A stretch of DNA of 64,000 bases from Thermoguttaceae bacterium (GTDB lineage Bacteria > Planctomycetota > Planctomycetia > Pirellulales > Thermoguttaceae): positions 323 through 64,322 of the forward strand of contig JBKQVT010000104.1 of NCBI GenBank assembly GCA_052139835.1, given 5' to 3'. The translations under genes were made by a program, and so were the position numbers. Below the pieces are notes generated by a model, which made no database searches, was not told the origin of the DNA, and worked only from the letters and a program-made list of their open reading frames with translations. The stretch's first letter is position 1. Each line of letters begins with the position of its first letter. Positions 3,074 through 64,000 of this stretch are shown piece by piece.

Positions 3074-3104
3074 CCTGGTTTTGGACGCATCTATTTTACA
3101 CCGC

Positions 3105-3130
3105 TGCCACGGCTGTGTCAGCCGTGGCAC
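3105..3130. repeat. REP-like palindrome TGCCACGGCT-GTGTC-AGCCGTGGCA
   Basis: 10-bp stem and 5-nt loop read directly. 22 nt are identical to the reverse complement of 9565-9587. Confidence 0.8.
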
Positions 3131-3249
3131 AAGGGGTAAGATTACGTTATCTCCCGGTTGCGGGAACTAACGCCCGTTGCTGGGCGTCTCTAACTGCGTT
3201 TGGGGCGGGGGAAGACGGTAGCGATGCCAATTTTCGAGGAGATTGCACG

Positions 3250-11240: not shown

Positions 11241-11506
11241 GGGGAAGCTCTTCTCGTGCACGCGGTTTGCGGGCGTCGCCACGCCGCCGGGGCTGGCCGC
11301 AATTCCCGGCCCGCTACCCGAAGTATACCGCGCCGGGGGGTAATCTGTAAACCGTCGAATCGGGGTTTGCGGCGGGCAAGGGGGGGCGAAGCGGGGGGGC
11401 GGGGCGGGCCTTGATTTCCCGGCTCCGCCGGGCGATACTTAAGCGTTTGGCGATTTTTGGGTGGGGCGACTCCTGCCCCCGCTGTCACCGTGGAGAATGG
11501 TTTGCC

Positions 11507-50729: not shown

Positions 50730-50824
50730 CATCGCCGATCCGACAATCCCCGCCTTCGGGCACCGCGTCGAGTCGTCGGTCCCGGACCGAGATTGCCCGA
50801 ATTCCGTTGAGCCTTCGCTGGGGC

Positions 50825-50858
50825 GCCCTCACCCTGCCCTCTCCCGGAGGGAGAGGGG
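50825..50858. repeat. REP element GCCCTCACCC-N-CCCTCTCCC-GGA-GGGAGAGGG, probable bidirectional terminator
   Basis: 9-bp stem and 3-nt loop at 50837-50857, between the convergent LRR gene (stop 50729) and malic enzyme gene (stop 50868). Same family as 57451-57540. Confidence 0.75.
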
Positions 50859-50867
50859 ACCGCGGGC

Positions 50868-52301
50868 TCACGGCGAAATGTGGAACGACGGCTTGTGCTC
50901 CCGACGTGCGACCCCGGCCTCGACCGCCGCGTGCGATACCGCCTTCGCCACCGCAATCGCCACGCGACGGTCGAAGACGCTGGGGACGATGTAGTCGGGC
51001 GTGAGGTCCCCCTGGGCAATCACGCCCGCAATCGCACCGGCGGCGGCGATCTTCATGGCGTCGACCACCCGGCAGGCCCGCACGTCCAACATGCCGCGAA
51101 AGAAGCCGGGAAAACAGAGCACGTTGTTGATCTGGTTCGGATAATCCGAGCGCCCGGTCGCCACCACCGCCGCGTACGGCACGGCCAGGTCCGGATCGAT
51201 CTCGGGATCGGGGTTCGCCAGGGCGAAGACGATGGGCCGCGGGGCCATTTTCTTCAGGTCCTCGACGCCCAAGACGTCCGCCGCCGAGACGCCGATGAAG
51301 ACATCGGCGCCGGCGATCACGTCAGCCAGGCTGCCCCGCAGCCGCTCGGGATTGGTGTTCTCGGCCAGCCACTGTTTCACCGGGTTATCGGCGTAATCGT
51401 TGCCGCGCACGAGCGCCCCGGCGCGGTCGCAGAGCACGATGCGCGCGGCGCCCGCCGAGGCCAGCAGCTTGGCGATGGCCGTGCCGGCCGCTCCCGCCCC
51501 CGAGATGACCACACGCAGGTCCGGCAGCTTCTTCTCGACCAGTTTCAGGGCGTTTTCGAGGGCGGCCATCACGACGATGGCCGTGCCGTGCTGGTCGTCG
51601 TGAAAGACCGGGATATCAAGCCGGCCGCTCAGCTCCTCCTCGATGGCCATGCAGCGCGGGGCGGAGATGTCCTCCAGGTTGATGCCGCCGAAGGTCGGCG
51701 CCAGGCGGACGCAGGTCTCGACGATCTCGCCGGCGTCCTGGGTGCCGAGGCAGATGGGAAAGGCGTCCACGCCGCCGAATTCCTTGAACAGCACGGCCTT
51801 GCCCTCCATCACCGGCAGGGCGGCCAGGGGGCCGATGTTGCCCAGGCCCAGGACCGCCGAGCCGTCGCTCACCACGGCGACGGTGTTGTGGCGGATGGTC
51901 AGGGCGAAGGCGGCCTCCGGCTCGGCGTGGATCGAGCGGCAAATCCGCGCCACCCCCGGCGTATAGACCATCGAGAGGTCGTCGCGGGTGACCACGGGCG
52001 TGATCGGGTTGATTTCGATCTTGCCGCCGAGGTGGAGGAGAAACGTGCGGTCGGATACCCGCAGCACCCGCACCCCTTCGATGGCCCGGACGCACTGCAC
52101 GATCCGCTGCTCGTGCTCCAGGTCGCGGGCGCTGACGGTGATGTCGCGGGTGATGTTGCCCTCTTGGACTTCGACCACGTCGACGGCGCCGATGAAGCCG
52201 TCGGCCGCGCCGATGGCCGAGGTGATGCGGCCCAACTGGCCGGGGCGGTCGGCGTATCGCAGCCGCAGAACGGTGCTGTAGGAGGGGCTTTGGCGTTTCA
52301 T
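50868..52301 (-). CDS. NAD(P)-dependent malic enzyme with N-terminal ACT domain
   Basis: ACT-like VLRLRYADRPGQLGRITSAIGAADGFIGAVDV. Malic enzyme core VYTPGVARIC...VVSDGSAVLGLGNIGPLAALPVMEGKAVLFKEFGGVDAFPI. Rossmann VISGAGAAGTAIAKLL. ATG 52301 preferred over TTG 52313. Confidence 0.9.
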   Translation of the reverse strand: MKRQSPSYSTVLRLRYADRPGQLGRITSAIGAADGFIGAVDVVEVQEGNITRDITVSARDLEHEQRIVQCVRAIEGVRVLRVSDRTFLLHLGGKIEINPITPVVTRDDLSMVYTPGVARICRSIHAEPEAAFALTIRHNTVAVVSDGSAVLGLGNIGPLAALPVMEGKAVLFKEFGGVDAFPICLGTQDAGEIVETCVRLAPTFGGINLEDISAPRCMAIEEELSGRLDIPVFHDDQHGTAIVVMAALENALKLVEKKLPDLRVVISGAGAAGTAIAKLLASAGAARIVLCDRAGALVRGNDYADNPVKQWLAENTNPERLRGSLADVIAGADVFIGVSAADVLGVEDLKKMAPRPIVFALANPDPEIDPDLAVPYAAVVATGRSDYPNQINNVLCFPGFFRGMLDVRACRVVDAMKIAAAGAIAGVIAQGDLTPDYIVPSVFDRRVAIAVAKAVSHAAVEAGVARREHKPSFHISP

Positions 52302-52313
52302 GGGAGGAACCAA

Positions 52314-52394
52314 GGAGTTAGAAGTTAGGAGTTAGAAGCGTTGAGCGGACGGCCGTCGATGCTTCCGACTTCTAACTCCTAACTCCTAACTCCT
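52314..52394 (-). repeat. octamer-array hairpin, (GGAGTTAG)n arms, between sdhB and the malic enzyme gene
   Basis: 52314-52338 and 52370-52394 are complementary at 24/25 positions. The loop carries its own GACGG/CCGTC mini-palindrome. Confidence 0.9.
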
Positions 52395-52408
52395 TTCTTC
52401 TTTCTCCT

Positions 52409-53245
52409 TCATCCATCCAGCCAGCGGCGCAGGACGTGCCGCGTGGCGGCGCGGCCCTGGCGGGCAATCGCCGTCGTCAGGGGGATCTCCTTCGGGCAGA
52501 CCTGCGCGCAGTTCTGCGCATAGCTGCACGTCTCGATCCCCCCTTCGCCCACCAGCACGTCCAACCGCTGCGGGGCCAGCATCTTTCCGATCGGGTTCAA
52601 ATTGAACAACTCCGCCTGGCCGATGGCGAAGGCGCCGACGTAGCCGCGGGCCTCGGCCGCGCGGCGGCGGGCGTCGTACTGCTCCGGGGTCTCGTCGCGG
52701 CGATAGGCCGCCTCGATCTTGAGGAACTGCGGACAAGCCTCCAGGCAGCAGCCGCAGACGATGCACTTGCTCAGCACATAGGCCGTCTCCTGGTCCGGCA
52801 TCGACTGCCGCGGGCCCGAGCCCATGTCCAGGTAGCTATCCACCGGCACCCAGGCCTGGATCCGCTCCAGGGCGGCGAACATCCGGTCGCGGTCGACCAC
52901 CAGGTCGCGGAGCACGGGAAACTTGGTCATCGGCCGCAGCTCGATCTGGCCCGGCCGCTCGGCCAGCAGGGCGTCGACCAGGGCCGTACACGCCTGGCGG
53001 ACGCGGCCGTTGACCAGCATCGTGCAGGCCCCGCAGACCTCTTCCAGGCAATTGCACTCCCAGGCGATGGGGGCGACCTTGCGGCCGTCGGCGGTCACGC
53101 CCGCGGTGGCGATCTTCTCCAGGACGCTGATGCAGTTCATGTACGGTTCCCAGGGGACCTCGAACTGCTGCCAATAGGGCTGCTTCGCCGGCGCGTCCTG
53201 CCGCAGCACGCGGACCGAAAACGTCTTGGAAGGGGATTGGCTCAT
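52409..53245 (-). CDS. sdhB: succinate dehydrogenase/fumarate reductase iron-sulfur subunit
   Basis: MSQSPSKTF... with WECNCLEEVCGAC ([2Fe-2S]), CIVCGCCLEACP and CAQVCP cluster motifs. ATG 53245 overlaps the sdhA stop (ATGA). Confidence 0.9.
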   Translation of the reverse strand: MSQSPSKTFSVRVLRQDAPAKQPYWQQFEVPWEPYMNCISVLEKIATAGVTADGRKVAPIAWECNCLEEVCGACTMLVNGRVRQACTALVDALLAERPGQIELRPMTKFPVLRDLVVDRDRMFAALERIQAWVPVDSYLDMGSGPRQSMPDQETAYVLSKCIVCGCCLEACPQFLKIEAAYRRDETPEQYDARRRAAEARGYVGAFAIGQAELFNLNPIGKMLAPQRLDVLVGEGGIETCSYAQNCAQVCPKEIPLTTAIARQGRAATRHVLRRWLDG

Positions 53246-55200
53246 GGCTTTTGTTTCCGCTGCCGCTGGGCCCAGAGCTGCTCGACCACTTTCGCCCCGG
53301 CGCCGCCGTAAAGCCGCGGGCGCGGGGGAATCAGCGACACGTCCACGTCCTCGTAGCGGAGCGCCGGCTGGCCGTCGGCGGAAAACTCGGCGACGGTGGT
53401 CTTCAGCCAGCGTCGCGTGTTCTCTTGGAAGCGATCGACCCATTGCTCCGCCGCGCGGCGGGCCTCGGCCGTGTCGCCCGAGGGCAAATCGGGCATGGCG
53501 AACTCGGGCTTGTAGTGGGCGCCGCGACACTCGTCGCGGGCCAGCGCGCCGCGGAGGATCGCCTTGGCCAGCGGAAACATGTCGCCCAACGCGCGGGCGA
53601 AGACTGCGTTCTGATTGAGCCAGTTGCCGGTGTCGGAGAGCGAGCAGTGCCGGGCCTGCTCGTCCAAGTCCTCGACCGCGGCGCAGGCCTCGGCCAGCTC
53701 GTCGTTGCGGCGGACGACCGTGCCGGCACGCGTCATCACGCGCCCCAGTTCGGCATGGATGCGATAGGGGTTGGGGCCGCCTTCGGGCCGCGCCAACAAG
53801 GCCCGGTAGTCGGCCAGGTGCCGCATCGCCGGCTGGTCGAACAGCGAAGAGGGCTGCTCGGTCGCCGCGGCGCCCGGCAGGTTGCTGATATAGCGGAGCA
53901 CGCCCGGCGCGACGATCAGGCCGCTGAAGAGGCAAGCCACCAGCGAGTTGGCCCCCAGGCGGTTGGCGCCGTGAAATTGATATTCGCATTCGCCGATGGC
54001 GAACAGCCCCGGGATATTGGTCTGCTGGTTGCGGGGCGAGCCGACGACCAGCCCGCCGGCCGCGCTGCGCTCGTAGTCGCACCACAGCCCGCCCATCGTG
54101 TAGTGGACGGCGGGGAAGATTTTCATGGGCGTGGTGCGGGGGTCGGCGCCCTGGAATTTCTGATAGATGTCCAGCACGCCGCCCAGCTTGCGGTCGAGCG
54201 TCTCGCGGGGCAGTTGAGTCACGTCGAGATAGACGCAGGGGCGGTCGCGCTCGACGCTCAGGCCCTCGCGGAAGCAGACGTCGAAGAGTTCGCGGGTAGC
54301 GATGTCGCGCGGCACCAGGTTGCCATAGGTCGGATAGCGCTCTTCGAGGAAATAGAACCGCTCCTTCTCGGGAATCTGCGCGGGCGGCCTGGGGTCTTGC
54401 GGCGTGTGGGGCACCCAGATGCGGCCCCCCTCGCCGCGGACGCTCTCGCTGATGAGCCGCAGCTTGTCGGGGCCGGGGATGGCCGTGGGATGGACCTGGA
54501 TGAACTCGGGGTTGGCGTAATACGCCCCTGCCTGGAAGCAGCGGCTCACCGCGCTGCCGTTGCAGGCCATCGAGTTGGTCGAGAGGCCGAACAAGAGGCC
54601 GGCGCCGCCGCCGGCGACGATCACGGCGTCGGCCGGCAGGGCGTGAATCTTCATCGTCACCAGGTCCTGGGCGACGCAGCCGCGGCAGCGGCCGTGTTCG
54701 TCCAGCACCGGGCCAAGGAAGTCCCAGCACTCGTACTTCGTCACCTTGCCGGCCACGCACCAGCGGCGGACCTGCTCGTCCAGGGCATAGAGCAACTGCT
54801 GGCCGGTGGTGGTTCCGGCGAAGGCCGTGCGGCGGAAGAGCGTGCCGCCGAAGCGGCGCTGGTCGCGAAAGCCCTCGTGGGTGCGATTGAACGTCACGCC
54901 CAGCCGGTCCAGCAGGTCGATGATCCGCGGGGCCCAATCGACCATCTCGCGCACGGGGGGCTGATTCTGCAGGAACTCGCCGCCGTAGACGGTGTCCTCG
55001 AAATGGTTCCAGGTGCTGTCGCCGAGCTGCCGGGTGAGGTCGTTGACGCTGTTGATGCCGCCCTGGGCGCAGCAGCTATGCGAGCGGCGCAGCGGCAGCA
55101 GGCTCATGATGTCGACGTTGCAGTCGAGCTCGGCCAGTTTCATGGCCGCGGCCATGCCGGCCAATCCGCCGCCGACGATCATCACGCGCACGTTTGCCAC
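53242..55200 (-). CDS. sdhA: succinate dehydrogenase/fumarate reductase flavoprotein subunit
   Basis: VMIVGGGLAGMAAAMKLAE FAD fold, covalent-FAD His context RRSHSCCAQGGIN, HYTMGGL, RLGANSL. GTG 55200 with AAGGAG 8 nt upstream. Confidence 0.9.
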   Translation of the reverse strand: MANVRVMIVGGGLAGMAAAMKLAELDCNVDIMSLLPLRRSHSCCAQGGINSVNDLTRQLGDSTWNHFEDTVYGGEFLQNQPPVREMVDWAPRIIDLLDRLGVTFNRTHEGFRDQRRFGGTLFRRTAFAGTTTGQQLLYALDEQVRRWCVAGKVTKYECWDFLGPVLDEHGRCRGCVAQDLVTMKIHALPADAVIVAGGGAGLLFGLSTNSMACNGSAVSRCFQAGAYYANPEFIQVHPTAIPGPDKLRLISESVRGEGGRIWVPHTPQDPRPPAQIPEKERFYFLEERYPTYGNLVPRDIATRELFDVCFREGLSVERDRPCVYLDVTQLPRETLDRKLGGVLDIYQKFQGADPRTTPMKIFPAVHYTMGGLWCDYERSAAGGLVVGSPRNQQTNIPGLFAIGECEYQFHGANRLGANSLVACLFSGLIVAPGVLRYISNLPGAAATEQPSSLFDQPAMRHLADYRALLARPEGGPNPYRIHAELGRVMTRAGTVVRRNDELAEACAAVEDLDEQARHCSLSDTGNWLNQNAVFARALGDMFPLAKAILRGALARDECRGAHYKPEFAMPDLPSGDTAEARRAAEQWVDRFQENTRRWLKTTVAEFSADGQPALRYEDVDVSLIPPRPRLYGGAGAKVVEQLWAQRQRKQKP

Positions 55201-55204
55201 GGCT

Positions 55205-55984
55205 TCAGGCTCCTTTCCGATAGGCCAGCATGGCGGCGCCGGCGGCGACCGCGGCCAGGCAGGCGATGGGGGCCGTCGCGCCGGCCGGGGCCACGCGGAG
55301 CATGCCCACCAGGGCGCCGAGGCCGACGGCCAGAAGCGCCAGGCCGGCGGCGGCACAAGGATAGTTGGCCCCGCGCCGGGCGGCCTGGCTGGTCCAGACG
55401 CCCCAGGTGCTGCCGGCGGTCCAAAGTCCGTTGCCCAGGTGGTAGACGCTGACCGTCACGCCCACGGCGTAGGCGGCGATCACCCAGGCCGAGGCGGAGA
55501 TGGCCCGCGAGGCGGTCTCGGCCGCATTCTGGTAATCGAACAGGGCCCCGCCCAGCGGCCTGGTGACGTGTTGGCTCCACCAGGGAATCTCCAGCCAGCC
55601 GCGCATCTGGAAGACGTGCCAGAGAATAAATGCGAAGGCGGCCACGCCCGTCAGACGCTGCAACGTGTAGCGGATGTTGCCGGCGTAGGGATAGTTGAGC
55701 AGGTTGCGTTTGCCGCGGAGCACGATCACCAGGCCGACGAGGCCGTGGAAGAGAATGGGCAGGAGGACCAATCCCCATTCGAGGAAGAAGAGCGTGGTGG
55801 GGCCGACGGCATGGATCTGGTCGGCCCGCCGCTGGTAGGTTTCTGCGCCGTCGAGCACGGCGGCGTTGGTCGCCAGGTGGAAGGCCAGGTAGCCGCTGAC
55901 GAAAACGACGCCGGTGAGCGAGTGCAGGCGGCGAATGACGAATTCGTGGCGGCCGAAGAATGCGTCGAAACACGGTATTCGCAC
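55205..55984 (-). CDS. sdhC: succinate dehydrogenase cytochrome b subunit (single-subunit, 5-TM type)
   Basis: About 260 aa, five hydrophobic helices with conserved His (RRLHSLTG..., ILFHGLVG, ILWHVFQ, VYHLGNG), positioned directly upstream of sdhA. GTG 55984 has AGGAG 8 nt upstream. Confidence 0.75.
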   Translation of the reverse strand: MRIPCFDAFFGRHEFVIRRLHSLTGVVFVSGYLAFHLATNAAVLDGAETYQRRADQIHAVGPTTLFFLEWGLVLLPILFHGLVGLVIVLRGKRNLLNYPYAGNIRYTLQRLTGVAAFAFILWHVFQMRGWLEIPWWSQHVTRPLGGALFDYQNAAETASRAISASAWVIAAYAVGVTVSVYHLGNGLWTAGSTWGVWTSQAARRGANYPCAAAGLALLAVGLGALVGMLRVAPAGATAPIACLAAVAAGAAMLAYRKGA

Positions 55985-55986
55985 GA

Positions 55987-57426
55987 TCAAAGCTCCTGGG
56001 AGCGAATCACGACGAGCTTCTCGATCTGCATGTCCTTCATGGTATACGGAATGCCGCCGACGCCCAAGCCCGATTCCCGCAGGCCGGCAAAGGGCATCCA
56101 ATCGACGCGGAAGGCGGTGTGGTCGTTGACCATGACGGCGGAGGCGTCCAGCCGCCGGGCCGCCCGCAGGGCCGTGTCCAGGTCGCGGGTGAAGACTGCC
56201 GCCTGGAAGGCGTAGGGGAGCGCATTGGCCCGCGCGATCGCCTCGTCCAGCTCGTCGCAGGGCACGACGCAGACCACCGGGCCGAAGACCTCGTGGGTCA
56301 TGACGCGCGAATCGGCCGGCGGGTTGTAGAGCACGGTGGGGGCGTAGCACGTCGGGCCCAGCGGGCGGCCGCCGCAGCACAATTTCGCCCCGCCGCCGAC
56401 CGCCTCGGCGACCCACTTCCCCACGCGCTCGACCTCGGAGGGGCGAATTAAGGGGCCGACCTGCGTCTGGGGCAGCACCGGATCGCCCACCGTCAAGGCC
56501 CCGGCCTGCTGGGCAATGGCGTCGGCCAGCTTCTCGGCGATTTGCCTCACGGCGAAGACCCGCTGCACGGAGACGCAGACCTGGCCGGCATGATAGAAGC
56601 CTCCCTTGACCAGCAGCGGGACCATGGCGGCGAAATCAGCGTCGGCGGCCACCACCACCGGGGCCACGCCGCCGTGCTCCAGCGAGCAGCGCGTGCCGGG
56701 GGCCAACTGCGACCGCAACATCCAGCCCACCCGAGAGCTGCCGATGAAACTGAAGAAGCCCACCCGCCGGTCGCCGGCCAGCCGGCGGTTGAGTTCCTCG
56801 TCGCCGGTCAAGAGGGCCTGGCACCACTCCGCCGGCAGCCCGGCCTCGCGGAGGATGCCGACGAACCGCCAGCAGGAGAGCGGGGCCGCCTTGGCCGGCT
56901 TGACGATCACCGGGCAGCCGGCCGCCACCGCCGGGCCGACCTGGTGGACGATCAGGTTCAGGGGGTGATTGAAGGCGCTGAAGGCGACCACGACGCCGAT
57001 GGGCTCGTGGCGGGTGAAGGCCAAGCGCCCGGCCGAGGCCGCATTGAGTCCCATGGGCACTTCGCGGCCGGCCTGGGTGCGGAGGCATTCGACGCACAAC
57101 CGCACGCCGTCGATCGCCCGATCCACCTCGACCAACGAATCGACCAGCGGCTTACCGCCTTCGCGGGCCGCCTCGATGGCCAACTGCTCGCGCCGCCCTT
57201 GCATAATCGCGGCCGCGGCCTGCAGGACCTCGATCCGCCGGGCCGGGCCCAGCCAGCGGTCACGATCGCAAAACAAGCCATAGGCGGTCTTAAGTGCCTG
57301 CTCGATGCCGGACTCCCCGGCGCAGGCCACCGTGGCGATCAGCGTGCGATCAAAGGGGGCGAAGACCTCGGCATGGGCCGCGTCGCCCTCAGCGCCCGGA
57401 ACCAGTAAAGGGAAGTGCTCGGCCAT
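55987..57426 (-). CDS. NAD(P)-dependent aldehyde dehydrogenase (candidate succinic-semialdehyde dehydrogenase)
   Basis: ALDH-family collinearity: FSFIGSSRVGW, SLEHGGVAP (ELGG-like), catalytic GQVCVSVQRVF, EVFGPV. Stop is 2 nt from the sdhC start. Confidence 0.85.
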   Translation of the reverse strand: MAEHFPLLVPGAEGDAAHAEVFAPFDRTLIATVACAGESGIEQALKTAYGLFCDRDRWLGPARRIEVLQAAAAIMQGRREQLAIEAAREGGKPLVDSLVEVDRAIDGVRLCVECLRTQAGREVPMGLNAASAGRLAFTRHEPIGVVVAFSAFNHPLNLIVHQVGPAVAAGCPVIVKPAKAAPLSCWRFVGILREAGLPAEWCQALLTGDEELNRRLAGDRRVGFFSFIGSSRVGWMLRSQLAPGTRCSLEHGGVAPVVVAADADFAAMVPLLVKGGFYHAGQVCVSVQRVFAVRQIAEKLADAIAQQAGALTVGDPVLPQTQVGPLIRPSEVERVGKWVAEAVGGGAKLCCGGRPLGPTCYAPTVLYNPPADSRVMTHEVFGPVVCVVPCDELDEAIARANALPYAFQAAVFTRDLDTALRAARRLDASAVMVNDHTAFRVDWMPFAGLRESGLGVGGIPYTMKDMQIEKLVVIRSQEL

Positions 57427-57450
57427 CGCGTTTTGTCCTCCAATGTCCCG

Positions 57451-57540
57451 TCTCCCGCCGGGAGAGGGTTAGGGTGAGGGCTTTGTGCTTCTCTCCGACG
57501 TCGCCCTCACCCCCGGCCCCTCTCCCAAAGGGAGAGGGGA
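57451..57540. repeat. two inverted copies of the CCCTCACCC/CCCTCTCCC..GGGAGAGGG REP family
   Basis: Copy a 57451-57481 (tctcccgccgggagagggttagggtgagggc), copy b 57503-57540 (gccctcacccccggcccctctcccaaagggagagggga). Each has its own hairpin and the two can pair with each other. Confidence 0.8.
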
Positions 57541-57553
57541 GATGTTTACCTCA

Positions 57554-59188
57554 TCACACCGGACAGACCATCTTGCTGAGCTTCTCGGTGAGCTTCATGT
57601 TCTCGGCATAGTCCACCGGGCAGTCGATCACCACCACGGTGTCGTCGGCCAGGGCCTGCTGCAAAATGGGCCGCAGTTGGTCGGCGGCCTCGACGCGGTA
57701 GCCCTTGGCGCCGAAGCTCTCGGCATACTTCACGAAATCGGGGTTGCCGAAACGGACGTGGGCGGGCCGGCCGAAATGCCGCAACTGGTGCCACTCGATC
57801 AGGCCGTAGCCGTTGTCGTTCCAAATCAGGATCACGATCGGCGTGCCGATCCGCAGGGCCGTCTCGATCTCCTGCGAATTCATCATGAAGCCGGCGTCGC
57901 CGGTCACCGCCACCGCCGGCCGATCGGGATAGGCCAGCTTGGCGGCCACGGCGCCGGGCACGCCGATCCCCATGGCGGCGAAGCCGTTGGAAATGATGCA
58001 CGAGTTGGGCCGCTCGGGCTGATAGAGCCGGGCCATCCAGACCTTGTGGGCGCCCACGTCGCAGACCACGTTGCAATGGGCGGCCAGCACCCGCTGCAAG
58101 TCCCAGACGATCCGCTGGGGCTTCATCGGGCAGCATTCGTCGTTGGCGTACTCGCACAATTCGTTCATGATCGCTTGCCACAGGCCGGCGGCCGGGTAGT
58201 GGTCCTGCGGCCGGGTCAAAGCGGCCAGACCGTCCAGCGACGCCGCGATGTCGCCCAGCACGCCGCAGGCCACGATGTAGTGCTCGTCCACCTCGGCTGG
58301 CGCCGAATCGACGTGTACGATCTGCCGGTCCTTGCTGGGATGCCAGAAGCTGGGCGGATACTCGACCATGTCGTAGCCGACGCAGATGATCACGTCGGCG
58401 CGATCGAAGCCGCAGGCCACGTAATCGTGCGCCCGCATCCCCACCGCCCCCAGCCACACGCAGTGCGAGAACGGCACCACCCCCTTGGCCATGAAGGTCG
58501 AGGCCACGGGAATGTGCAGCTTCTCGGCGAAACGCAGCAACTGCTTGGCGGCGCGGGCGCGGATCACGCCGTTGCCGGCCATGATCAGCGGGTAGCGGGC
58601 GTGGGAAATAATGTCCGCCGCTTGCCGCAGCTTCTGCGGCGGAGGCACCGACTGGATCGGCCGCTGCACCCGCAACGGCACCTTCCCCTCGACCCGCAGC
58701 CGCGCCACGTCCTCGGGAAAGTCGATGAATCCCACCCCCGGCTTCTCCGTCTCCGCCTGCTTGAAGGCCTTGCGGACCACCTCGGGAATCGTCTCCGGGT
58801 GCACGATCTGGGTGTGGAATTTCGAGATCGGCGCGAAGAGGTTCACCAGGTCCAGGGCCTGGTGGCTCTCCTTGTGCATCCGCGTGGTGGCGGCCTGGCC
58901 GGAAATCGCCACCAGCGGCGCCCGGTCCATGTTGGCGTCGGCCACGCCGGTCACGAGGTTGGTGGCCCCGGGGCCCAGCGTCGCCAGGCACACCCCTGCC
59001 CTGCCGGTCAGCCGACCGTACACGTCGGCCATGAAGGCGGCGCCCTGCTCGTGGCGGGTGGCGATGAAGCGGATGGGACTGTCCAGCAGGACGTCCATGA
59101 TGTCGATGTTTTCCTCGCCGGGGATGCCGAAAATGTACTCGACCCCCTCATTCTCCAGGCAGCGCACGAAGAGTTCAGCAGCTTTCAT
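57554..59188 (-). CDS. thiamine-diphosphate enzyme of the acetolactate synthase (AlsS)-like family (candidate 2-oxoglutarate decarboxylase)
   Basis: MKAAELFVRCLENEGVEYIFGIPGEENIDIMD...RHEQGAAFMADVYGRLTG...LGPGATNL and ThDP motif GDAGFMMNSQEIETALRIGTPIVILIWNDNGYG. Confidence 0.85.
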   Translation of the reverse strand: MKAAELFVRCLENEGVEYIFGIPGEENIDIMDVLLDSPIRFIATRHEQGAAFMADVYGRLTGRAGVCLATLGPGATNLVTGVADANMDRAPLVAISGQAATTRMHKESHQALDLVNLFAPISKFHTQIVHPETIPEVVRKAFKQAETEKPGVGFIDFPEDVARLRVEGKVPLRVQRPIQSVPPPQKLRQAADIISHARYPLIMAGNGVIRARAAKQLLRFAEKLHIPVASTFMAKGVVPFSHCVWLGAVGMRAHDYVACGFDRADVIICVGYDMVEYPPSFWHPSKDRQIVHVDSAPAEVDEHYIVACGVLGDIAASLDGLAALTRPQDHYPAAGLWQAIMNELCEYANDECCPMKPQRIVWDLQRVLAAHCNVVCDVGAHKVWMARLYQPERPNSCIISNGFAAMGIGVPGAVAAKLAYPDRPAVAVTGDAGFMMNSQEIETALRIGTPIVILIWNDNGYGLIEWHQLRHFGRPAHVRFGNPDFVKYAESFGAKGYRVEAADQLRPILQQALADDTVVVIDCPVDYAENMKLTEKLSKMVCPV

Positions 59189-59307: not shown

Positions 59308-59420
59308 TAATCACCGCAGCCGTGTTCTCCGTGTTTCCCTGGTGTTTTTCTTTTCCCCCGTAATCATACGCACGGAGGGGATGATTGCCAAGCCGTTCTA
59401 GGAAAAAACCTGCGCTTCGT

Positions 59421-61562
59421 TCAGAAACCGACGCCAGTCCCCCCCTTCGACTCCACTTCGAAAAGCCCGATGCCGCCTTTCTCCAGCGGCCACGTGGTCA
59501 GATGTCGCCCGGTAAAATCCAGTTCCTCCCATGGCACCGCGGACCCGGTTCCATCAAATTGCATCCCATGGTAATGGCCGGAACCTGAAGGGGCCCAGGT
59601 CTGAAAGTCGCAGGCCAGGTCGATCTTGCGAGTTTTGCCGCTGGTGTTGACCACGATGACCAGCACCTTTCCACGCAAGACATACGCGGTCACCAGCGCC
59701 TCGGGACACGGCTCGGCAAGGATGCACTCGCCGATCAGCGTGCCGTCGGTGAAATAGGGGAGAAACTCCGCACGCAGCCGGGCGCATTGCTTCAAGGCCC
59801 GACTCAGCTCCGCGTGGTTGGCGATCCAATCGCTGGCGTTGGCGCCGTCGGGCTTCCGCGGCTGGACGTTCAGGTAGCGGTTCAGCGCGAAGCCCTCTTT
59901 CACCTCCGCCGGCGAGGCGTCGATGTTGAGGTTGATCCGCGGCGTGGGAAAGACGCTCGTGACGGCTCGGCAGTCCTTCAGCATGTCCCAGTTCCAAGAG
60001 TAATCGAGGTAGTCGCAGGAGACTTCCATGGCAGCCACGACTTCCGCGGAAAAGGTCGATTGGGGATCGCGGCGGCGGGAGTAATCGCGGATTTGCCGGG
60101 TGAGCGTGAGCACGTTCGGCTCCGGGGGCTCGATGAAATACTGGTCCCAGGAGAGCGAGGGGATGCCCATGTCCACGAGGTGCCGGCAGGATTCGAGCAC
60201 CTCCCGCTGCCAGATGGGATTGTGCGAGTTGATCTGCACGGAGCTGTAGGCATGGGCGTAAGACGGGTTGAAACGGGGAATGAACTCGGGGTGATAGGTC
60301 CAGCCTTCGTTGCCGGACACCTTCAGACCATACCTGGCGGCAGTCTTCTCCTTGGCATTGAAGACGCTGATGAAGGGGACCACGTTCACGCCGAGCCGCT
60401 TGCACTCGGTCACGGCCCGGACAAACCCCTCATCGCCGCCGAGGTGTTTCCAAAACGGCGGCAGCGGCAAGAGGAAGCCCTCCGAGGGCCCCCACACTAC
60501 CATCTCGTCCAGCCCGTGCTCTTTGGCTTCCTTCGCCAGCTTGGGCAGGTCGGCGAAGGTGAAGTTGGCATCCTGCGGGTCGTCGGGATAGTTGCGGGAA
60601 AGCCAGACGGTGCGGAAACCCAGGCCGCGGCGGACGTGCTCCGGCAGTGGCACGACCCGCTTGATGTTCTGCCGGACCCAGGTCCGGTAGGGCTCGATTC
60701 CCTTGGCCCAGCCGGCCGCGTGGGGCGTGAGCCAGTACTCGCCGCTGTTCCACTGCGCAGCGGGGGCGATCGTCACGTCCTGGGGGAAGACCATGCGGAG
60801 CTTTTTGTTGGTTTCCCAGAGGTGCAGCAGCATGACCATCGTTGGTTGCACGCCCCACTGGCGGGCAAAGAGGCTCAGCCCGCCGCGGAGGCTGCCGTAG
60901 TCGATCCAACGCACGATCATCTCGCTGTACAGGCCGTTGGCGGCGATCCAGCGCACCACGCCCGGATTGCCCTCCAGCGGCGCGGGCGGCGAGGGACGAA
61001 GATCGGCGAACGGCCTGGTCACGCATCCTCCGCTGCGAACCTCGGTTGGCGCGGCGCCCTGGATCGGCGTCAGTCCCACCAGGTCTGGGAAGAGAACCTG
61101 CATGACCGGTCTGGTCGAGCGGTTGTCAATCGAGCAACTCAAAACGATCGAGCGGCCGTCCGGCGCAGCCTGGAACGTCACGGTCGCAGCAATCGGACCG
61201 CCTGCCGAGGGGCCGCCGAGCCGGTCCCAGTGGATCGTGAGGGTGTCGGCGGCCCTCGTAATCTTCACCCGCTTGGAGCGCCGGGCGGCAAGGGTCGCCG
61301 TGACGCCCGGCTTTTCCCCAGCCTGCACCACGTCGACCACCCCGGCGGCCTCGGGCGTGGTCTCCAGAATCGTCCCCGCGCCCGTGTGGGCAAGCCGCAA
61401 GAGGACGCCGGAGTTGTCGTCCAACACGATGTGCAGTCCGTTGAGCGTTGTCTCGACGGGCGCCGCACGCGCCGCGTTCGATCCGCCGCCGGGCAGCGCC
61501 AGCACGGCCGCGGCCGCCAGCGAAAACAGAGTGCTAACGAAACGCGAGCGGTTCATGTTCAT
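59421..61562 (-). CDS. secreted hypothetical protein: N-terminal beta-rich domain plus C-terminal TIM-barrel-like (glycoside-hydrolase-like) domain
   Basis: Signal peptide MNMNRSRFVSTLFSLAAAAVLALPG. The first ~300 aa are paralogous to the next gene. The C-terminal half has alternating beta/alpha pattern (DEMVVWGP, VNVVPFISV, PSLSWDQYF). Confidence 0.65.
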   Translation of the reverse strand: MNMNRSRFVSTLFSLAAAAVLALPGGGSNAARAAPVETTLNGLHIVLDDNSGVLLRLAHTGAGTILETTPEAAGVVDVVQAGEKPGVTATLAARRSKRVKITRAADTLTIHWDRLGGPSAGGPIAATVTFQAAPDGRSIVLSCSIDNRSTRPVMQVLFPDLVGLTPIQGAAPTEVRSGGCVTRPFADLRPSPPAPLEGNPGVVRWIAANGLYSEMIVRWIDYGSLRGGLSLFARQWGVQPTMVMLLHLWETNKKLRMVFPQDVTIAPAAQWNSGEYWLTPHAAGWAKGIEPYRTWVRQNIKRVVPLPEHVRRGLGFRTVWLSRNYPDDPQDANFTFADLPKLAKEAKEHGLDEMVVWGPSEGFLLPLPPFWKHLGGDEGFVRAVTECKRLGVNVVPFISVFNAKEKTAARYGLKVSGNEGWTYHPEFIPRFNPSYAHAYSSVQINSHNPIWQREVLESCRHLVDMGIPSLSWDQYFIEPPEPNVLTLTRQIRDYSRRRDPQSTFSAEVVAAMEVSCDYLDYSWNWDMLKDCRAVTSVFPTPRINLNIDASPAEVKEGFALNRYLNVQPRKPDGANASDWIANHAELSRALKQCARLRAEFLPYFTDGTLIGECILAEPCPEALVTAYVLRGKVLVIVVNTSGKTRKIDLACDFQTWAPSGSGHYHGMQFDGTGSAVPWEELDFTGRHLTTWPLEKGGIGLFEVESKGGTGVGF

Positions 61563-61574
61563 TTTCCCTTTGAG

Positions 61575-62492
61575 CTACTTCGGCTTGCCCTGCTCTTTGA
61601 GCCAGGCGCGGTAGGGGGCGTCGGCCTCCGCCCGGCCTTGGCTGTAGGGCGTCAGACAATACTCGCAACTCTCCCACTTGGCGCCGTCGGCCAGGTTCAC
61701 GTAATGGCAACACATCATCCGCAGCCGCTCGATCTTCTCCCGGTATTGGAGCATGACGATCGGTCCCTTGTCCCAGGCGGAGCGGCGGGGAAAACAGGCA
61801 AAGCCCGCCTTTTCCGTGCCGTAGAGCATCCAGCGGCCGACGCTCTCGCTCTGCTGGCCATCCGAGCTAAACTCGGCGAAGGTCGAGTCCCCGGCATAGA
61901 ATTGGTCCCGCTCGGTCGGCAGCAGCGACTTAAACGAGCGGACGACCGCTCCGCCGGCCCCGCCGCTGCGGAACTCGGTTTCCGCCGCGCCGCCAAAAGG
62001 CAGCAAACCGAGAAAATCGGGAAAGAGGACCTGGCGGACGGCGCGGCGCGAATGGTTTTCGATCCGACATGCCAATAACACCGATTTGCCGTCGGCGGCC
62101 GCCTTCAGCGTGACGGTGGCGGCAACGCTGCCCGACACGGGAAAGGCCGCGCGGCTTGTGCCCAGGCGGTCCCAATGGATTGTCACCCCCTCGGGCGTTT
62201 TCGTGATCCGCGCCCCGGGGGAGAAGCGGGAAGCCAATCGCAGCGGCTCGAACTGCGGCACGGGATAGGCCAGGTCGAGAATGCTGGCATCCTCGGGCGT
62301 CGTGCGAAGCACCTCGCCGGGCCCGGCGGATGCCAGGCTGAGGATGCCCCCCGTCTTTCCGTCCAAGACGATTTTCCAGCCGCCCAGCGCGGCGGTCACC
62401 GTCGGGCCGGTCTCTTCGGCGGCCGGGCCGGGCCCGGCAAAGCCGACAAGAAGCACGCCCACAGAAAATAAGACAGTTGATAGTTTCACCAC
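61575..62492 (-). CDS. secreted hypothetical protein, stand-alone paralog of the N-terminal domain of 59421..61562
   Basis: GTG start, signal peptide VKLSTVLFSVGVLLVGFAGPGPA. Collinear with the neighbour (TIHWDRLG, AATVT(L/F)(K/Q)AA(A/P)DG(K/R)S(V/I)(L/V)L(A/S)C.I(E/D)N(H/R)S, QVLFPD(F/L)(L/V)GL). Confidence 0.65.
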   Translation of the reverse strand: MVKLSTVLFSVGVLLVGFAGPGPAAEETGPTVTAALGGWKIVLDGKTGGILSLASAGPGEVLRTTPEDASILDLAYPVPQFEPLRLASRFSPGARITKTPEGVTIHWDRLGTSRAAFPVSGSVAATVTLKAAADGKSVLLACRIENHSRRAVRQVLFPDFLGLLPFGGAAETEFRSGGAGGAVVRSFKSLLPTERDQFYAGDSTFAEFSSDGQQSESVGRWMLYGTEKAGFACFPRRSAWDKGPIVMLQYREKIERLRMMCCHYVNLADGAKWESCEYCLTPYSQGRAEADAPYRAWLKEQGKPK

Positions 62493-62533: not shown

Positions 62534-63250
62534 TCACCGCGTCAGCTCGAGCAACTCCTTCTGCTTGGGGTGCTCGCCGAGCCATTGGACCTTGCCGGTC
62601 TTCACGTCGTAGATCGCGCCGATCACCTTGAGCTTGCCGGATTGGACGTGGCGGCGCGTCATCGGACTGCCCGCCATCAGTTCTTCGATCGAATACCATA
62701 CGTTCAACTCGGTGGCGGCCGGCACGAGATCCTTGCCGTGCAGGTCGCGGTGGGCGGCCTGGGCCGCGGCGACCGCCGGCTCGATCTTGTCCACCACCCG
62801 GCGGATATTGCCGTGCAGTTCCGCGCCGGTGACCGCCGCGGTCACCGCGCCGCAGTCGGTGTGGCCCAGGACGATCAGCAGGTGCGTGCCCAAGTGGCTC
62901 ACGCCATACTCGATGGAGCCCATCTCAGCGACGTCGCAGACGTTGCCGGCGACCCGCACGGCGAAGATGTCGCCGATCCCCTGGTCGAAGACGGTCTCCA
63001 GCGGCACCCGCGAGTCGCTGCAGCCGAGGATCGTGACGAAGGGCTGCTGGCTGCGGGCGGTTTCGCTCCGCCGGGCGGCATCGGCGGCGGCGTGGGTGCT
63101 CTTCTCCGCCGCGAACCGCGCGTTGCCCGCCTTCAATCGCGCGATCGCTTCCTCCGCCGTCACGCCGCTGGACTGCTCCGCGGCCGCAACGAGGCCCGCC
63201 GCCGCCGACAACCAGGTCGCGAGTGCCGTGAAGAGGACCAGTTTTCTCAT
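62534..63250 (-). CDS. beta-class carbonic anhydrase with signal peptide
   Basis: MRKLVLFTALATWLSAAAGLVAA signal. Zinc ligand motifs GCSDSRVP and LGHTDCGAV. ATG 63250 preferred, because upstream codons of ORF 62534..63304 translate a repeat array. Confidence 0.9.
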   Translation of the reverse strand: MRKLVLFTALATWLSAAAGLVAAAEQSSGVTAEEAIARLKAGNARFAAEKSTHAAADAARRSETARSQQPFVTILGCSDSRVPLETVFDQGIGDIFAVRVAGNVCDVAEMGSIEYGVSHLGTHLLIVLGHTDCGAVTAAVTGAELHGNIRRVVDKIEPAVAAAQAAHRDLHGKDLVPAATELNVWYSIEELMAGSPMTRRHVQSGKLKVIGAIYDVKTGKVQWLGEHPKQKELLELTR

Positions 63251-63267
63251 GGGGATCTCCTGGTTTA

Positions 63268-63300
63268 GGGATTTAGGGATTGGGGATTGGGGATTGGGGA
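63268..63300. repeat. (GGGATTTA)/(GGGGATT) array
   Basis: gggattta gggatt ggggatt ggggatt gggga, filling the spacer between the hydrolase stop (63301) and the carbonic anhydrase start (63250). Confidence 0.9.
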
Positions 63301-64000
63301 TCAATGACGGCCAGATTCCAAAAATTGCAAGAGCGTCGCCCGAAAAAGCCGCCGATCGTAGTTCTCCATTTGTTTGTGTCCTGCGCCCTCGAAGACGACC
63401 AACTTCGCGTGCGATCGGATCCGTTGGTACATCGCCTGGACTTCCGGCAGCCGGGCGTTCGGATCGGCCGAACCCGTGACGAAGACCACGGGCACGGTCG
63501 CGGGAATGTCTTGCAGAGAATCATAGGGGGAAACACGGTCGGCGGCAATCGGCAGGAAAAGCGGCGCCCAGAGCTTCAGGCCGCCGTAGGCCACCCAATC
63601 CAGCCCCGGACCGAGTTGGTGTTGCAGCCGGTTCCAGACCGCCGTGTCGAGGTCCTTGTACGGATGGTTGAAGAAGTATCCGGCGACGCGATCCTGCAAT
63701 TGGCCGGCGGCGAAGATCGCGGCCGCCGCCCCCATCGAGTCGCCCATCACGTAGATCGGCTCGCCGGGAAACTGGCGGCGGAGAAACTCGACGCCCGCAA
63801 CGACGTCGTGCCGGGCGCTCCAGCCCACGTCGTTTACAGAGCCCGTCGAATCGCCGTGACAACGCAGGCTGGGCGCCAGCACGGTGAGCCGCTCCTGGGC
63901 CAGCATCTGGATGACGGGCAACATGCCGCTGCGGCAGTTGTTGATGCCGTGGAGCAGCAGCACGCAGCCCTTGTGCCGATCGCCGCGGACCAGCCAGGCG
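63301..64000 (-). CDS. alpha/beta-fold hydrolase (5' end outside window)
   Basis: Frame stays open to the window end (..GCVLLLHGINN oxyanion-type motif). Nucleophile elbow VMGDSMGAAA (GxSxG). C-terminal GAGHKQ. Confidence 0.75.
   Translation of the reverse strand, partial: AWLVRGDRHKGCVLLLHGINNCRSGMLPVIQMLAQERLTVLAPSLRCHGDSTGSVNDVGWSARHDVVAGVEFLRRQFPGEPIYVMGDSMGAAAAIFAAGQLQDRVAGYFFNHPYKDLDTAVWNRLQHQLGPGLDWVAYGGLKLWAPLFLPIAADRVSPYDSLQDIPATVPVVFVTGSADPNARLPEVQAMYQRIRSHAKLVVFEGAGHKQMENYDRRLFRATLLQFLESGRH

Follow-up and report, generated by a model that had tools for sequence, protein, structure and literature searches.

The question raised by this locus is whether a gene that annotation pipelines label "acetolactate synthase large subunit", together with the aldehyde dehydrogenase (ALDH) gene and the sdhCAB genes that follow it, encodes a CoA-independent route from 2-oxoglutarate (2-OG) to fumarate. 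The genes lie in the 64,000-nt stretch of planctomycete DNA analyzed here (the window), and their coordinates are given in Table 1. The sequence-only reading had described six co-directional minus-strand genes with very short junctions, and this description was borne out when the open reading frames were checked and the sequence was read directly. The ALDH TGA codon is followed by TC (2 nt) and then by the sdhC GTG; the sdhC TGA is separated by 4 nt from the sdhA GTG; and sdhA and sdhB overlap as ATGA. An AGGAG Shine-Dalgarno sequence is located 8 nt upstream of the sdhC GTG, within the 3' end of the ALDH gene, and AAAGGAG precedes the sdhA GTG. The ThDP enzyme carries the quoted motif GDAGF...NDNGYG and the ALDH the quoted motif GQVCVSVQR, and the domain assignments of the cluster proteins held in searches with NCBIfam models and a domain search. 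The promoter candidate precedes the ThDP gene by about 175 nt and was the sole match in that region; it is weak evidence because shuffled sequences gave an average of 0.7 hits, and the scan covers planctomycete promoters poorly.

Table 1. Features of the cluster, with positions in the window
Feature	Position	Strand	Details
Sigma-70-like promoter candidate	59363..59391	-	TTGGCA-17-TATGAT; 10/12 consensus matches
ThDP-dependent enzyme, probable KGD	57554..59188	-	544 aa; NF006187, TPP_enzyme_N/M/C
Compound palindromic (REP-like) element	57427..57553	-	Fills the 127-nt ThDP-ALDH spacer
Aldehyde dehydrogenase, probable SSADH	55987..57426	-	479 aa; Aldedh 402 bits
sdhC, single membrane-anchor cytochrome b (b558-type), complex II	55205..55984	-	GTG start; TIGR02046
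sdhA, flavoprotein subunit	53242..55200	-	GTG start; NF006392 881 bits (cutoff 855); FAD_binding_2 + Succ_DH_flav_C
sdhB, iron-sulfur subunit	52409..53245	-	NF006391 341 bits (cutoff 244)
Long inverted repeat between sdhB and malic-enzyme gene	52307..52400	.	32-nt arms, GGAGTTAG-like units
ACT-domain malic enzyme	50868..52301	-	ACT_4 + malic + Malic_M

The ThDP enzyme scored 779 bits (cutoff 509) on NF006187, a family whose NCBIfam name is "acetolactate synthase" and which also contains the characterized cyanobacterial 2-oxoglutarate decarboxylases (KGD). A cyanobacterial KGD-type protein (L130) scored 881 bits on the same model, and the gene beside it matches the Synechococcus 7002 succinic semialdehyde dehydrogenase (SSADH) structures 3VZ1/4IT9 at 659 bits. 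The window enzyme was 57% identical to the Microcystis KGD (L146), 36–37% identical to AlsS, and 31% identical to IlvI. The identification of L146 as the Microcystis KGD was based on its N-terminus, MGELNTAEL, on a match to 56 of the 57 residues from published mutagenesis primers, and on E50 being in register. In a simple neighbor-joining tree, which carries no support values, the window clade was sister to the cyanobacterial KGD clade and AlsS fell outside; the metagenome sequences in this tree were chosen on the motif NDGGYGLIEWK, and positions 461–471 are therefore biased. As the sequence-only reading implied, the enzyme nests with neither AlsS nor IlvB. MaKGD is strictly 2-OG-specific, and six substrate contacts have been assigned in it; they come from docking to an AlphaFold-predicted structure rather than from crystallography. 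Four of these contacts (V382, K386, A408, and L467) are identical in the window enzyme, while Q254 is replaced by R and K471 by H; AlsS matches none of the six. Judged from its sequence, the enzyme is likely a 2-oxoglutarate decarboxylase despite its annotation as acetolactate synthase.

The ALDH scored below the cutoff of every NCBIfam model, including the curated SSADH models. Rather than being orthologous to A2771 or GabD, it belongs to a different, uncharacterized ALDH family and is 28% identical to the cyanobacterial SSADH. The closest solved structures were Burkholderia ALDHs and moss ALDH21 (NADP-SSADH; 31.7% identity), the latter being its nearest characterized relative. The succinate-binding residues R121, Y296, and R457 of ALDH21 are kept as R103, Y278, and R440, and these are invariant across our ALDH alignment (A1). 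The Arg/Tyr/Arg trio is not exclusive to SSADHs: both Arg residues are found in the M. jannaschii lactaldehyde dehydrogenase, and the trio is also present in uncharacterized Burkholderia ALDHs. We consider the ALDH a probable succinic semialdehyde dehydrogenase.

SdhC scored 71.8 bits on TIGR02046 (b558 family), under the cutoff of 96; its translation has four His residues within hydrophobic segments, and homologues with 57–77% identity are encoded at the corresponding place in L003, L006, L007, L008, L010, and L011. The arms of the inverted repeat downstream of sdhB (I1) are 91% complementary and are not followed by a U-tract; the repeat may serve as a terminator or as a hairpin affecting RNA stability. 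The malic-enzyme open reading frame was present as described (50868..52313), but its start was revised: the listed frame merely opens at the first TTG, at 52313, and the ATG at 52301 is therefore likelier. Its product scored 384 bits on NF009501, far under the cutoff of 1178. Among the relatives, only the closest, L008, has a malic-enzyme gene 3' of sdhB. The malic-enzyme gene of the window, though co-directional with the cluster, is thus probably a unit of its own or one loosely tied to it.

Comparison with other genomes separated the conserved pair from its lineage-specific extension. The NF006187 ThDP gene adjoins an ALDH gene of the window type in 51 of 77 judgeable loci, distributed over many phyla. 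The linkage to sdhCAB emphasized in the sequence-only reading is kept in six relatives, with ALDHs 73–89% identical to that of the window, and because of this recurrence the order ThDP-ALDH-sdhC(AB) is more than chance; however, it is limited to those six loci (6/74), and the widespread unit is the ThDP-ALDH pair. Five of the six are labelled or recognisably planctomycete, and the sixth, labelled Nealsonbacteria, is probably mis-binned. Many relatives have the cassette without sdh, and some have only one of the two genes (ThDP or ALDH), or have IS elements and stress-type genes such as OsmC and TauE on its flanks. The neighborhood of the cassette has a 2-OG/TCA flavor: four loci, spread over two phyla, have citrate synthase beside it, and 13 have a stand-alone glutamate-synthase FMN-domain protein there. 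NF006187 enzymes paired with the window-type ALDH span three subclades (734–909 bits), and others are paired with a GabD-type SSADH in cyanobacteria and on a Haloarcula plasmid; thus, two ALDH families have been recruited. The cassette is also found in Methylophagaceae (L076, L077, L079, and L081), a family reported to be without OGDH.

The best explanation of the cluster is a CoA-independent route from 2-OG to fumarate, and we assign this reading a probability of roughly 0.6. The ThDP enzyme would decarboxylate 2-OG to succinic semialdehyde, the ALDH would oxidize this with NAD(P)+ to succinate, and an SdhCAB of the Bacillus subtilis type would convert succinate to fumarate, with electrons passing to (mena)quinone. 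The core unit is the two-gene cassette found in many phyla; in a planctomycete lineage to which Thermoguttaceae belong, sdhCAB follows it directly. The published TCA reconstruction for Thermogutta terrifontis, the type species of the family, has a ferredoxin-dependent 2-oxoglutarate oxidoreductase (OFOR) and lists no OGDH; because of this, the bypass may be an O2-tolerant alternative to that enzyme plus succinyl-CoA ligase in this lineage. A lack of sucA has been reported for several planctomycetes of a related family, Adhaeretor mobilis HG15A2 among them. The proposal made for this locus from its sequence is thus supported by the KGD-sister position of the ThDP enzyme, the T. terrifontis enzyme list, and the conserved sdhCAB linkage, and we regard the cluster as a well-supported candidate rather than a demonstrated pathway.

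The enzymes could have these functions without forming a single operon, if the hairpin in the ThDP-ALDH spacer terminates transcription; co-expression would then be confined to ALDH-sdhCAB, and the ThDP gene would have its own regulation. The hairpin is very stable (−73.6 kcal/mol, z = −4.96). The sdh-linked relatives other than L008 have palindrome-rich spacers of about 88–276 nt, and the spacer is 17–40 nt in most clade A loci without sdh linkage. However, the hairpin has no U-tract, the distance from it to the ALDH ATG is only ~40 nt and contains a GGAGGA Shine-Dalgarno sequence, and no promoter-like site was found in that interval. In L008, the closest relative, the spacer is just 29 nt, leaving no room for a terminator plus a promoter, and the palindromic element is absent; it is therefore not a conserved terminator. 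Nor is the element specific to this locus: it is a dispersed repeat with related copies at 50824–50860 of the window and in L003, L007, and L080, and it is 75.7% identical to an E. coli intergenic repeat over about 105 nt. We conclude that the element is a recent insertion, and split transcription is possible but the less probable arrangement. By analogy with REP elements, the insertion may alter how much mRNA the ThDP gene yields relative to ALDH-sdhCAB, rather than separate the two functionally.

A less likely alternative is that the pair is a generic cassette converting some other 2-oxo acid to an aldehyde and then to an acid (for example sulfopyruvate to sulfoacetate, or hydroxypyruvate, 2-oxoadipate, or another keto acid). 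It would then stand upstream of sdhCAB through an accident of gene order inherited in one planctomycete lineage. The ALDH fits no curated family, and its weak best matches include lactaldehyde, sulfoacetaldehyde (SafD), and phosphonoacetaldehyde dehydrogenases. TauE/SafE-family exporters are encoded no more than a few kb away in L209, L210, L212, and L005; the IS elements and stress genes in several genomes, the low frequency of sdh linkage, and the changes at ThDP positions 254 and 471 point the same way. Against this, the ThDP enzyme is in a sister clade to a strictly 2-OG-specific enzyme and keeps four of six pocket residues, K386 among them; the recurrent neighbors (sdhCAB, citrate synthase, and the Glu_synthase domain) are related to 2-OG and the TCA cycle; and its family is paired elsewhere with bona fide SSADH types. 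That the ThDP enzyme is a true acetolactate synthase, catabolic or biosynthetic, with unrelated ALDH and sdh neighbors, is very improbable: NCBI and JGI give all homologues that name, the best solved-structure matches are AlsS, and the enzyme clears the AlsS model NF006378 by a narrow margin (520.9 bits, cutoff 510), but L130 also passes it, at 515 bits, so this model does not discriminate AlsS from KGD, and in addition the enzyme fails TIGR02418 (AlsS) and TIGR00118 (IlvB), is only 36–37% identical to AlsS, has replacements at all of the AlsS substrate positions F254, Q408, M467, and Q471, and is encoded beside an ALDH gene in most genomes; among the window ORFs that were scanned, in the cluster and on its flanks, none matched ilvN or alsD.

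The preferred reading, a bypass through succinic semialdehyde, can be compared with several known systems. In the cyanobacterial KGD/SSADH bypass (SynPCC7002_A2770/A2771; Sll1981; Microcystis MAE_06010), the ThDP enzyme is likewise an NF006187 member, its E50 and GDG...ND motif are also kept in the window enzyme, the ALDH gene is adjacent in both, and the proposed chemistry is equal (2-OG to SSA to succinate). The two differ in that the cyanobacterial SSADH is from another ALDH family, its gene is upstream of KGD in the cyanobacterial metagenome loci whereas the window has ThDP and then ALDH, and the window cluster is joined to sdhCAB in a heterotrophic planctomycete. The Haloarcula sp. JP-L23 plasmid pair (L087) similarly couples an NF006187 enzyme to an SSADH-class ALDH, the two genes overlapping by 4 nt; however, its ThDP enzyme is only 46% identical, its ALDH belongs to the GabD/PRK09406 type and is encoded ahead of the ThDP enzyme, and sdh is absent.

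The mycobacterial variant TCA cycle (Kgd/Rv1248c plus GabD1/GabD2) is conceptually the same succinic semialdehyde bypass, but its Kgd is homologous to the SucA-type E1 rather than ALS-like, and later work showed that it is a 2-hydroxy-3-oxoadipate synthase. To our knowledge, it has no homology to the window ThDP enzyme beyond the ThDP fold. Rv1248c is cited in PMC10418658.

For the individual enzymes, AlsS (B. subtilis 4RJJ and K. pneumoniae 1OZF; 386–413 bits, the best PDB matches) shares the fold and three-domain architecture of the ThDP enzyme but has an unlike substrate pocket at all six compared positions. Physcomitrella patens ALDH21 (NADP-dependent SSADH, PDB 5MZ5) is the one with known function among the five best solved-structure matches to the ALDH, and its catalytic Cys and Glu are conserved; it differs in being a eukaryotic cytosolic GABA-shunt enzyme with no ThDP partner. 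The Bacillus subtilis-type SdhCAB (type B, with a di-haem cytochrome b558 anchor) has the same sdhC-sdhA-sdhB order; the window SdhA and SdhB pass the equivalog models and the single-subunit anchor has four membrane-segment His residues, although SdhC is under the family cutoff. In the window, genes for two soluble enzymes are added upstream of this unit, and these enzymes would provide the succinate that it oxidizes.

The best explanation of the cluster is the one proposed by the sequence-only reading, and we give it a probability of about 0.6: the ThDP enzyme would act as a 2-oxoglutarate decarboxylase (KGD), the aldehyde dehydrogenase (ALDH) as a succinic semialdehyde dehydrogenase (SSADH), and SdhCAB would complete the conversion of 2-oxoglutarate (2-OG) to fumarate. 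The ORF listing returned the same six co-directional minus-strand ORFs, from 50868 to 59188, that this reading had described, and their families were confirmed by Pfam and NCBIfam. The GC content was high throughout the window (0.63-0.70), with 0.64-0.69 in the cluster region. Coordinates of all features are collected in the table.

Coordinates of the cluster genes and other features in the window and in comparison loci (L numbers) from other genomes, metagenomes and plasmids
Feature	Sequence	Coordinates	Strand	Remarks
ThDP enzyme	window	57554..59188	-	544 aa
ALDH	window	55987..57426	-	479 aa
sdhC	window	55205..55984	-	GTG start
sdhA	window	53242..55200	-	GTG start
sdhB	window	52409..53245	-	
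ACT-domain malic enzyme	window	50868..52313	-	ATG at 52301 is the more likely start
Spacer repeat	window	57427-57553		ThDP-ALDH spacer
Spacer repeat, partial copy	window	50824-50860		just 3' of the malic-enzyme gene
Spacer repeat, related piece	L003	3287-3326		
Spacer repeat, related piece	L007	3454-3492		
Spacer repeat	L213	601-703		
Inverted repeat	window	52307-52400		sdhB/malic-enzyme spacer
ORF	window	59421-61562	-	713 aa
ORF	window	61575-62492	-	305 aa
Beta-carbonic anhydrase	window	62534-63304	-	~3 kb upstream of the ThDP gene
Beta-carbonic anhydrase	L004	5624-6151		~4 kb upstream of a lone ALDH gene
Bacterial alpha-2-macroglobulin	window	3028-9543	+	2171 aa
ATP-dependent PEP carboxykinase	window	11411-13084	+	
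Mfd (TRCF)	window	19148-22381	-	
Insertion	L008	11438-12082		643 nt, between ALDH and sdhC
PF01645 protein	L049	2149-3690		adjoins the cassette

The junctions were read from the sequence. At the ALDH/sdhC junction, only TC separates the ALDH TGA from the sdhC GTG, with AGGAG 8 nt upstream; at the sdhC/sdhA junction, 4 nt lie between the TGA and the sdhA GTG, which has AAAGGAG in front of it; and sdhA and sdhB overlap as ATGA. Such tight joining of the gene for a dehydrogenase that would be soluble and substrate-supplying to the gene for the complex II anchor is an unusual operon design. SdhA and SdhB scored above the cutoffs of NF006392 (881 bits vs 855) and NF006391 (341 bits vs 244), respectively; SdhC was b558-like yet fell under its family cutoff (71.8 bits vs 96). 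Because L008, the closest relative, was the only one among the relatives with a malic enzyme gene 3' of sdhB, we consider the malic enzyme to be loosely associated with the cluster. The inverted repeat in the sdhB/malic-enzyme spacer has 32-nt arms that are 91% complementary, is made up of tandem GGAGTTAG/GAAGTTAG octamers, and has no U-tract.

The 127-nt spacer between the ThDP and ALDH genes contains a compound hairpin (-73.6 kcal/mol, z = -5.0) without a U-tract. Its repeat is laid out as CCCTCTCCC..GGGAGAGGG, then GGGGTGAGGGC..GCCCTCACCC, then CCCTCTCCC..GGGAGA. Because none of the junctions gave a canonical intrinsic terminator in a terminator scan, a role for the hairpin as a simple terminator is unsupported. 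In L008, whose ThDP enzyme and ALDH are 92% and 89% identical to those of the window, the spacer is only 29 nt long and the hairpin is absent; we therefore conclude that the element is a recent insertion. By blastn, a partial copy of the repeat was found elsewhere in the window, and related pieces were found in L003, L007, and L080. The element was also 75.7% identical over ~105 nt to an E. coli intergenic repeat with the same three-hairpin layout; this repeat is unannotated, and 3615 of the 5426 complete E. coli genomes carry it, one site being the hrpB-mrcB interval. Given the partial copy, the related pieces, and the E. coli match, the spacer represents a dispersed REP-like element and not a dedicated terminator, and we classify it as a putative cross-phylum REP/boxC-like element. 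Other sdh-linked relatives had different palindromes in this spacer, and in most clade A loci not linked to sdh its length was 17-40 nt.

The window ThDP enzyme contains the Pfam domains TPP_enzyme_N/M/C and keeps the equivalents of E50, D435, and D462 (the catalytic Glu50 and the GDG...N(D)N diphosphate/Mg motif). Its best NCBIfam model was NF006187/PRK08322 (779 bits vs a cutoff of 509). It did not reach the AlsS model TIGR02418 (475.7 vs 551.1) or the IlvB model TIGR00118 (422.8 vs 538.35), and it barely cleared a second AlsS model, NF006378 (520.9 vs 510). The last score does not discriminate between AlsS and KGD, because the KGD-type cyanobacterial protein of locus L130 clears the same model with 515 bits. 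The L130 protein scored 881 bits with NF006187, and the ALDH encoded by the adjoining gene matched the crystal structures of the Synechococcus 7002 SSADH with 659 bits; these results led us to conclude that the proven KGDs belong to NF006187. The model is an 'equivalog' named 'acetolactate synthase large subunit', and it captures characterised cyanobacterial KGDs at ~880 bits. For a large part of the family, that name is probably incorrect.

The KGD of Microcystis (MaKGD) is strictly 2-OG-specific, and its residues docked against 2-OG have been described (PMC10418658). For comparison, four MaKGD peptide fragments were derived from the mutagenesis primers of that study. No exact match to the fragments was found among the protein-cluster representatives searched, whose cluster names included no cyanobacterium, and a 66-aa chimera of the fragments used as a protein query gave only two irrelevant short matches. 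Metagenomes were scanned with a degenerate DNA pattern for NDGGYGLIEWK, which gave 120 loci. The protein of locus L146 (GC 42%) begins MGELNTAEL as in the published MaKGD model, matches 56 of the 57 fragment residues, and has E50 in register; it is the Microcystis KGD. Close KGD homologues adjoin an ALDH in many further loci from the scan.

The window enzyme was 57% identical to the Microcystis KGD, 36-37% identical to the AlsS proteins of B. subtilis and K. pneumoniae, and 31% identical to E. coli IlvI. In a neighbor-joining tree of 139 sequences, which carries no support values and in which the search pattern had predetermined residues 461-471 of the metagenome sequences, AlsS lay outside the large NF006187 group, and clade A, which includes the window enzyme, was sister to the cyanobacterial KGD clade. 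Thus the enzyme, which the sequence-only reading had described as AlsS-like and put forward as a candidate KGD, did not fall within AlsS/IlvB. The six proposed 2-OG contacts of MaKGD, which were obtained by docking into an AlphaFold model, were identical in the window enzyme at V382 (I/M in AlsS), K386 (A/H in AlsS), A408, and L467, and changed at Q254 (to R) and K471 (to H); AlsS had none of the six.

The window ALDH was 100% identical to P0121, a protein from a Thermoguttaceae MAG. It reached the cutoff of no NCBIfam model, and its scores with the curated SSADH models were 250 for NF006916 (cutoff 521), 241 for TIGR01780 (646), 203 for NF006915 (730), and 192 for NF008415 (828). The closest solved structures, all at ~250 bits, were those of uncharacterised Burkholderia ALDHs, moss ALDH21, and the lactaldehyde dehydrogenase of M. 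jannaschii. ALDH21 is an NADP-dependent SSADH, and Kopecna and coworkers reportedly found in 2017 that its Arg121, Arg457, and Tyr296 bind the carboxylate of succinate. Alignment to 5MZ5 showed that the window ALDH keeps this clamp together with the catalytic Cys and Glu. R103, Y278, C284, and R440 were invariant in 19 members of the ALDH family; the chain numbering is offset by 18, which places the catalytic Cys at 302. The clamp is not specific to SSADHs, both arginines being found in lactaldehyde dehydrogenase too. For this reason, and because the identity is just 31.7% over 461 residues to ALDH21 and 28% to the cyanobacterial SSADH, a member of a different ALDH family, we say at most that the window ALDH may work like an SSADH, though it lies outside every characterised SSADH family. 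As a candidate SSADH, it is non-orthologous to the cyanobacterial enzyme and belongs to an uncharacterised ALDH family. The bypass pair envisaged in the sequence-only reading was borne out for the kinship of the ThDP enzyme to KGD, but its ALDH is not an A2771/GabD-type partner.

A profile scan with the ALDH alignment, covering one genome per GTDB species, gave 80 loci with 59-89% identity. Their labels included Planctomycetota, Gamma-, Alpha-, and Deltaproteobacteria, Acidobacteriota, Calditrichota, Latescibacterota, Krumholzibacteriia, Gemmatimonadota, Verrucomicrobiota, and others; some of the MAGs may be mis-binned. The window proteins were compared by tblastn with 87 loci, 77 of which could be judged for ThDP adjacency. 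A same-strand ThDP gene directly adjoined the ALDH gene in 51 of the 77 (47 upstream and 4 downstream). By identity to the window enzyme, the partners were grouped into classes A (at least 60%; 23 loci), B (45-59%; 12 loci), and C (<45%; 16 loci), and all seven partners sampled, which covered the three classes, scored 734-909 bits with NF006187. The ALDH gene was followed by sdhC in only six loci (L003, L006, L007, L008, L010, and L011), with spacers of 16-1542 nt. Five of these were labelled as or recognisably Planctomycetota, and L010 was labelled Nealsonbacteria, almost certainly through mis-binning. Other relatives had the ThDP-ALDH cassette without sdh (L009, L012, L022, and L209-L211), the ThDP gene alone (L001), or the ALDH gene alone (L004 and L212), and IS elements adjoined several of these loci. 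Because relatives carry the cassette or its single genes without sdh, we conclude that the conserved functional unit is the two-gene cassette and that the joining to complex II is lineage-specific. This refines the link between bypass and complex II proposed earlier: the cassette is the widespread unit, and its joining to sdhCAB is specific to one planctomycete lineage.

IS elements or transposase genes (rve, HTH_Tnp_1, Transposase_20, and Transposase_mut) flank the cassette or a lone ALDH gene in L005, L209, L210, L211, and L212, and in L005 an IS lies between the ALDH gene and a split ThDP gene. Cassette proteins were at least 65-74% identical across MAGs labelled as different phyla. Together, the IS flanks and the cross-phylum identity suggest horizontal mobility or mis-binning. 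In L008, the insertion between the ALDH gene and sdhC carries an ORF resembling a BrnT/DUF497-type toxin (MNGIEFAWDEKKARINRRKHGVSFEEA...), and the ALDH and sdhA genes have frameshifts that resemble long-read assembly errors.

In 13 loci that span several phyla (L012, L013, L016, L022, L035, L040, L044, L047, L049, L053, L063, L075, and L082), a stand-alone glutamate-synthase FMN-domain protein (PF01645) adjoined the cassette. It is ~500-570 aa long and membrane-anchored. Its presence hints at a three-step module that would lead from glutamate/2-OG to succinate. Other neighbors were citrate synthase (4 loci in two phyla) and a pyridine-nucleotide disulfide oxidoreductase (7 loci).

In the PLSDB plasmids, a Leisingera plasmid had an ALDH of this family (56% identity) next to a ThDP enzyme of clade A (63%), and in a Haloarcula plasmid a GabD-type SSADH gene overlapped an NF006187 gene by 4 nt; the search of PLSDB found no cyanobacterial KGD. 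NF006187 enzymes are thus paired with two ALDH families, and because one of these is a bona fide SSADH, the pairing is an argument for succinic semialdehyde as the shared intermediate. This argument weighs against the main rival explanation, in which the cassette uses another 2-oxo acid and the adjacency to sdh is incidental; the two changed contacts, the ALDH scores below every family cutoff, and the cassettes found apart from sdh are compatible with that explanation, which we consider unlikely. Functions of the ALDH as GAPN, lactaldehyde dehydrogenase, SafD, or PhnY were rejected because the family cutoffs were missed and the neighbors do not fit, and they are retained only within this generic rival. 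The annotated acetolactate-synthase function, favored by the pipeline name 'acetolactate synthase large subunit' and by AlsS enzymes as the top solved-structure matches, is very improbable: alsD had no match among the cluster genes and the flanking ORFs scanned in the window, and no ilvN/ilvH small-subunit gene adjoins the ThDP gene.

The preferred reading, with KGD, SSADH, and SdhCAB acting in succession, would account for how aerobic planctomycetes carry out the 2-OG step. The ORFs scanned in the window (long ORFs to ~40.8 kb and ORFs from ~42.8 kb on) included no match for sucA/sucB, korAB, or sucCD. In the reconstruction of T. terrifontis R1, the 2-OG step is assigned to a ferredoxin-dependent 2-oxoglutarate oxidoreductase, alongside SucCD and SdhCAB (THTE_3868-3870), and 2-oxoglutarate dehydrogenase (OGDH) is not listed. 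We found no link between KGD and Planctomycetes in the literature searched. Lineages of Methylophaga, Nitrosomonas, and lucinid symbionts are commonly said to have an incomplete TCA cycle. The ALDH gene has a clade C NF006187 gene directly upstream in four Methylophaga MAGs (L076, L077, L079, and L081) and in L044 (Nitrosomonas), and L027 and L028, from lucinid symbionts, carry the ALDH gene. Methylophagaceae are reported to be without OGDH (PMC10199937).

A wider proposal is tentative, and we lean somewhat against it as a whole: the NF006187 family and the uncharacterised ALDH family may form a horizontally spread 2-OG-to-succinate bypass in at least 10 phyla, including lineages long regarded as having incomplete TCA cycles, such as Methylophagaceae and planctomycetes lacking sucA. 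In Thermoguttaceae-like planctomycetes this bypass would be joined to complex II, and the resulting operon of five genes, leading from 2-OG to fumarate, would complete the oxidative TCA cycle in air with no need for OGDH, CoA, or succinyl-CoA ligase. If the KGD and SSADH functions are assigned correctly, planctomycete reconstructions with a missing sucA or an O2-sensitive ferredoxin oxidoreductase for the 2-OG step would gain a simple account of aerobic TCA function, and a large family named 'acetolactate synthase large subunit' would have to be re-annotated in thousands of genomes. The ALDH would then represent a new SSADH family, and the same ThDP partner would have recruited it separately from the GabD-type SSADH of cyanobacteria and haloarchaea, and claims of 'incomplete TCA cycles' for cassette-bearing obligate methylotrophs, autotrophs, and several phyla would become directly testable.

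Several other features were seen around the cluster. Two co-directional ORFs of 713 and 305 aa, just upstream of the ThDP gene, had no Pfam match. Beta-carbonic anhydrase genes lie near both the window cluster and the lone ALDH gene of L004; this nearness may be a coincidence, though the proposed decarboxylase would release CO2. Elsewhere the window encodes an alpha-2-macroglobulin, a PEP carboxykinase, and Mfd.

Comparison with known systems showed the following: AlsS has F254, Q408, M467, and Q471 at positions where the window enzyme has R, A, L, and H. The cyanobacterial KGD gene is partnered with an A2771/GabD-type SSADH gene, whereas the window ThDP gene adjoins an ALDH gene of another family. 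With the type B succinate:quinone oxidoreductase, exemplified by SdhCAB of B. subtilis, the window cluster shares the sdhC-A-B order and a single b-type anchor; its SdhC differs in scoring below the family cutoff, although its position and His pattern fit.
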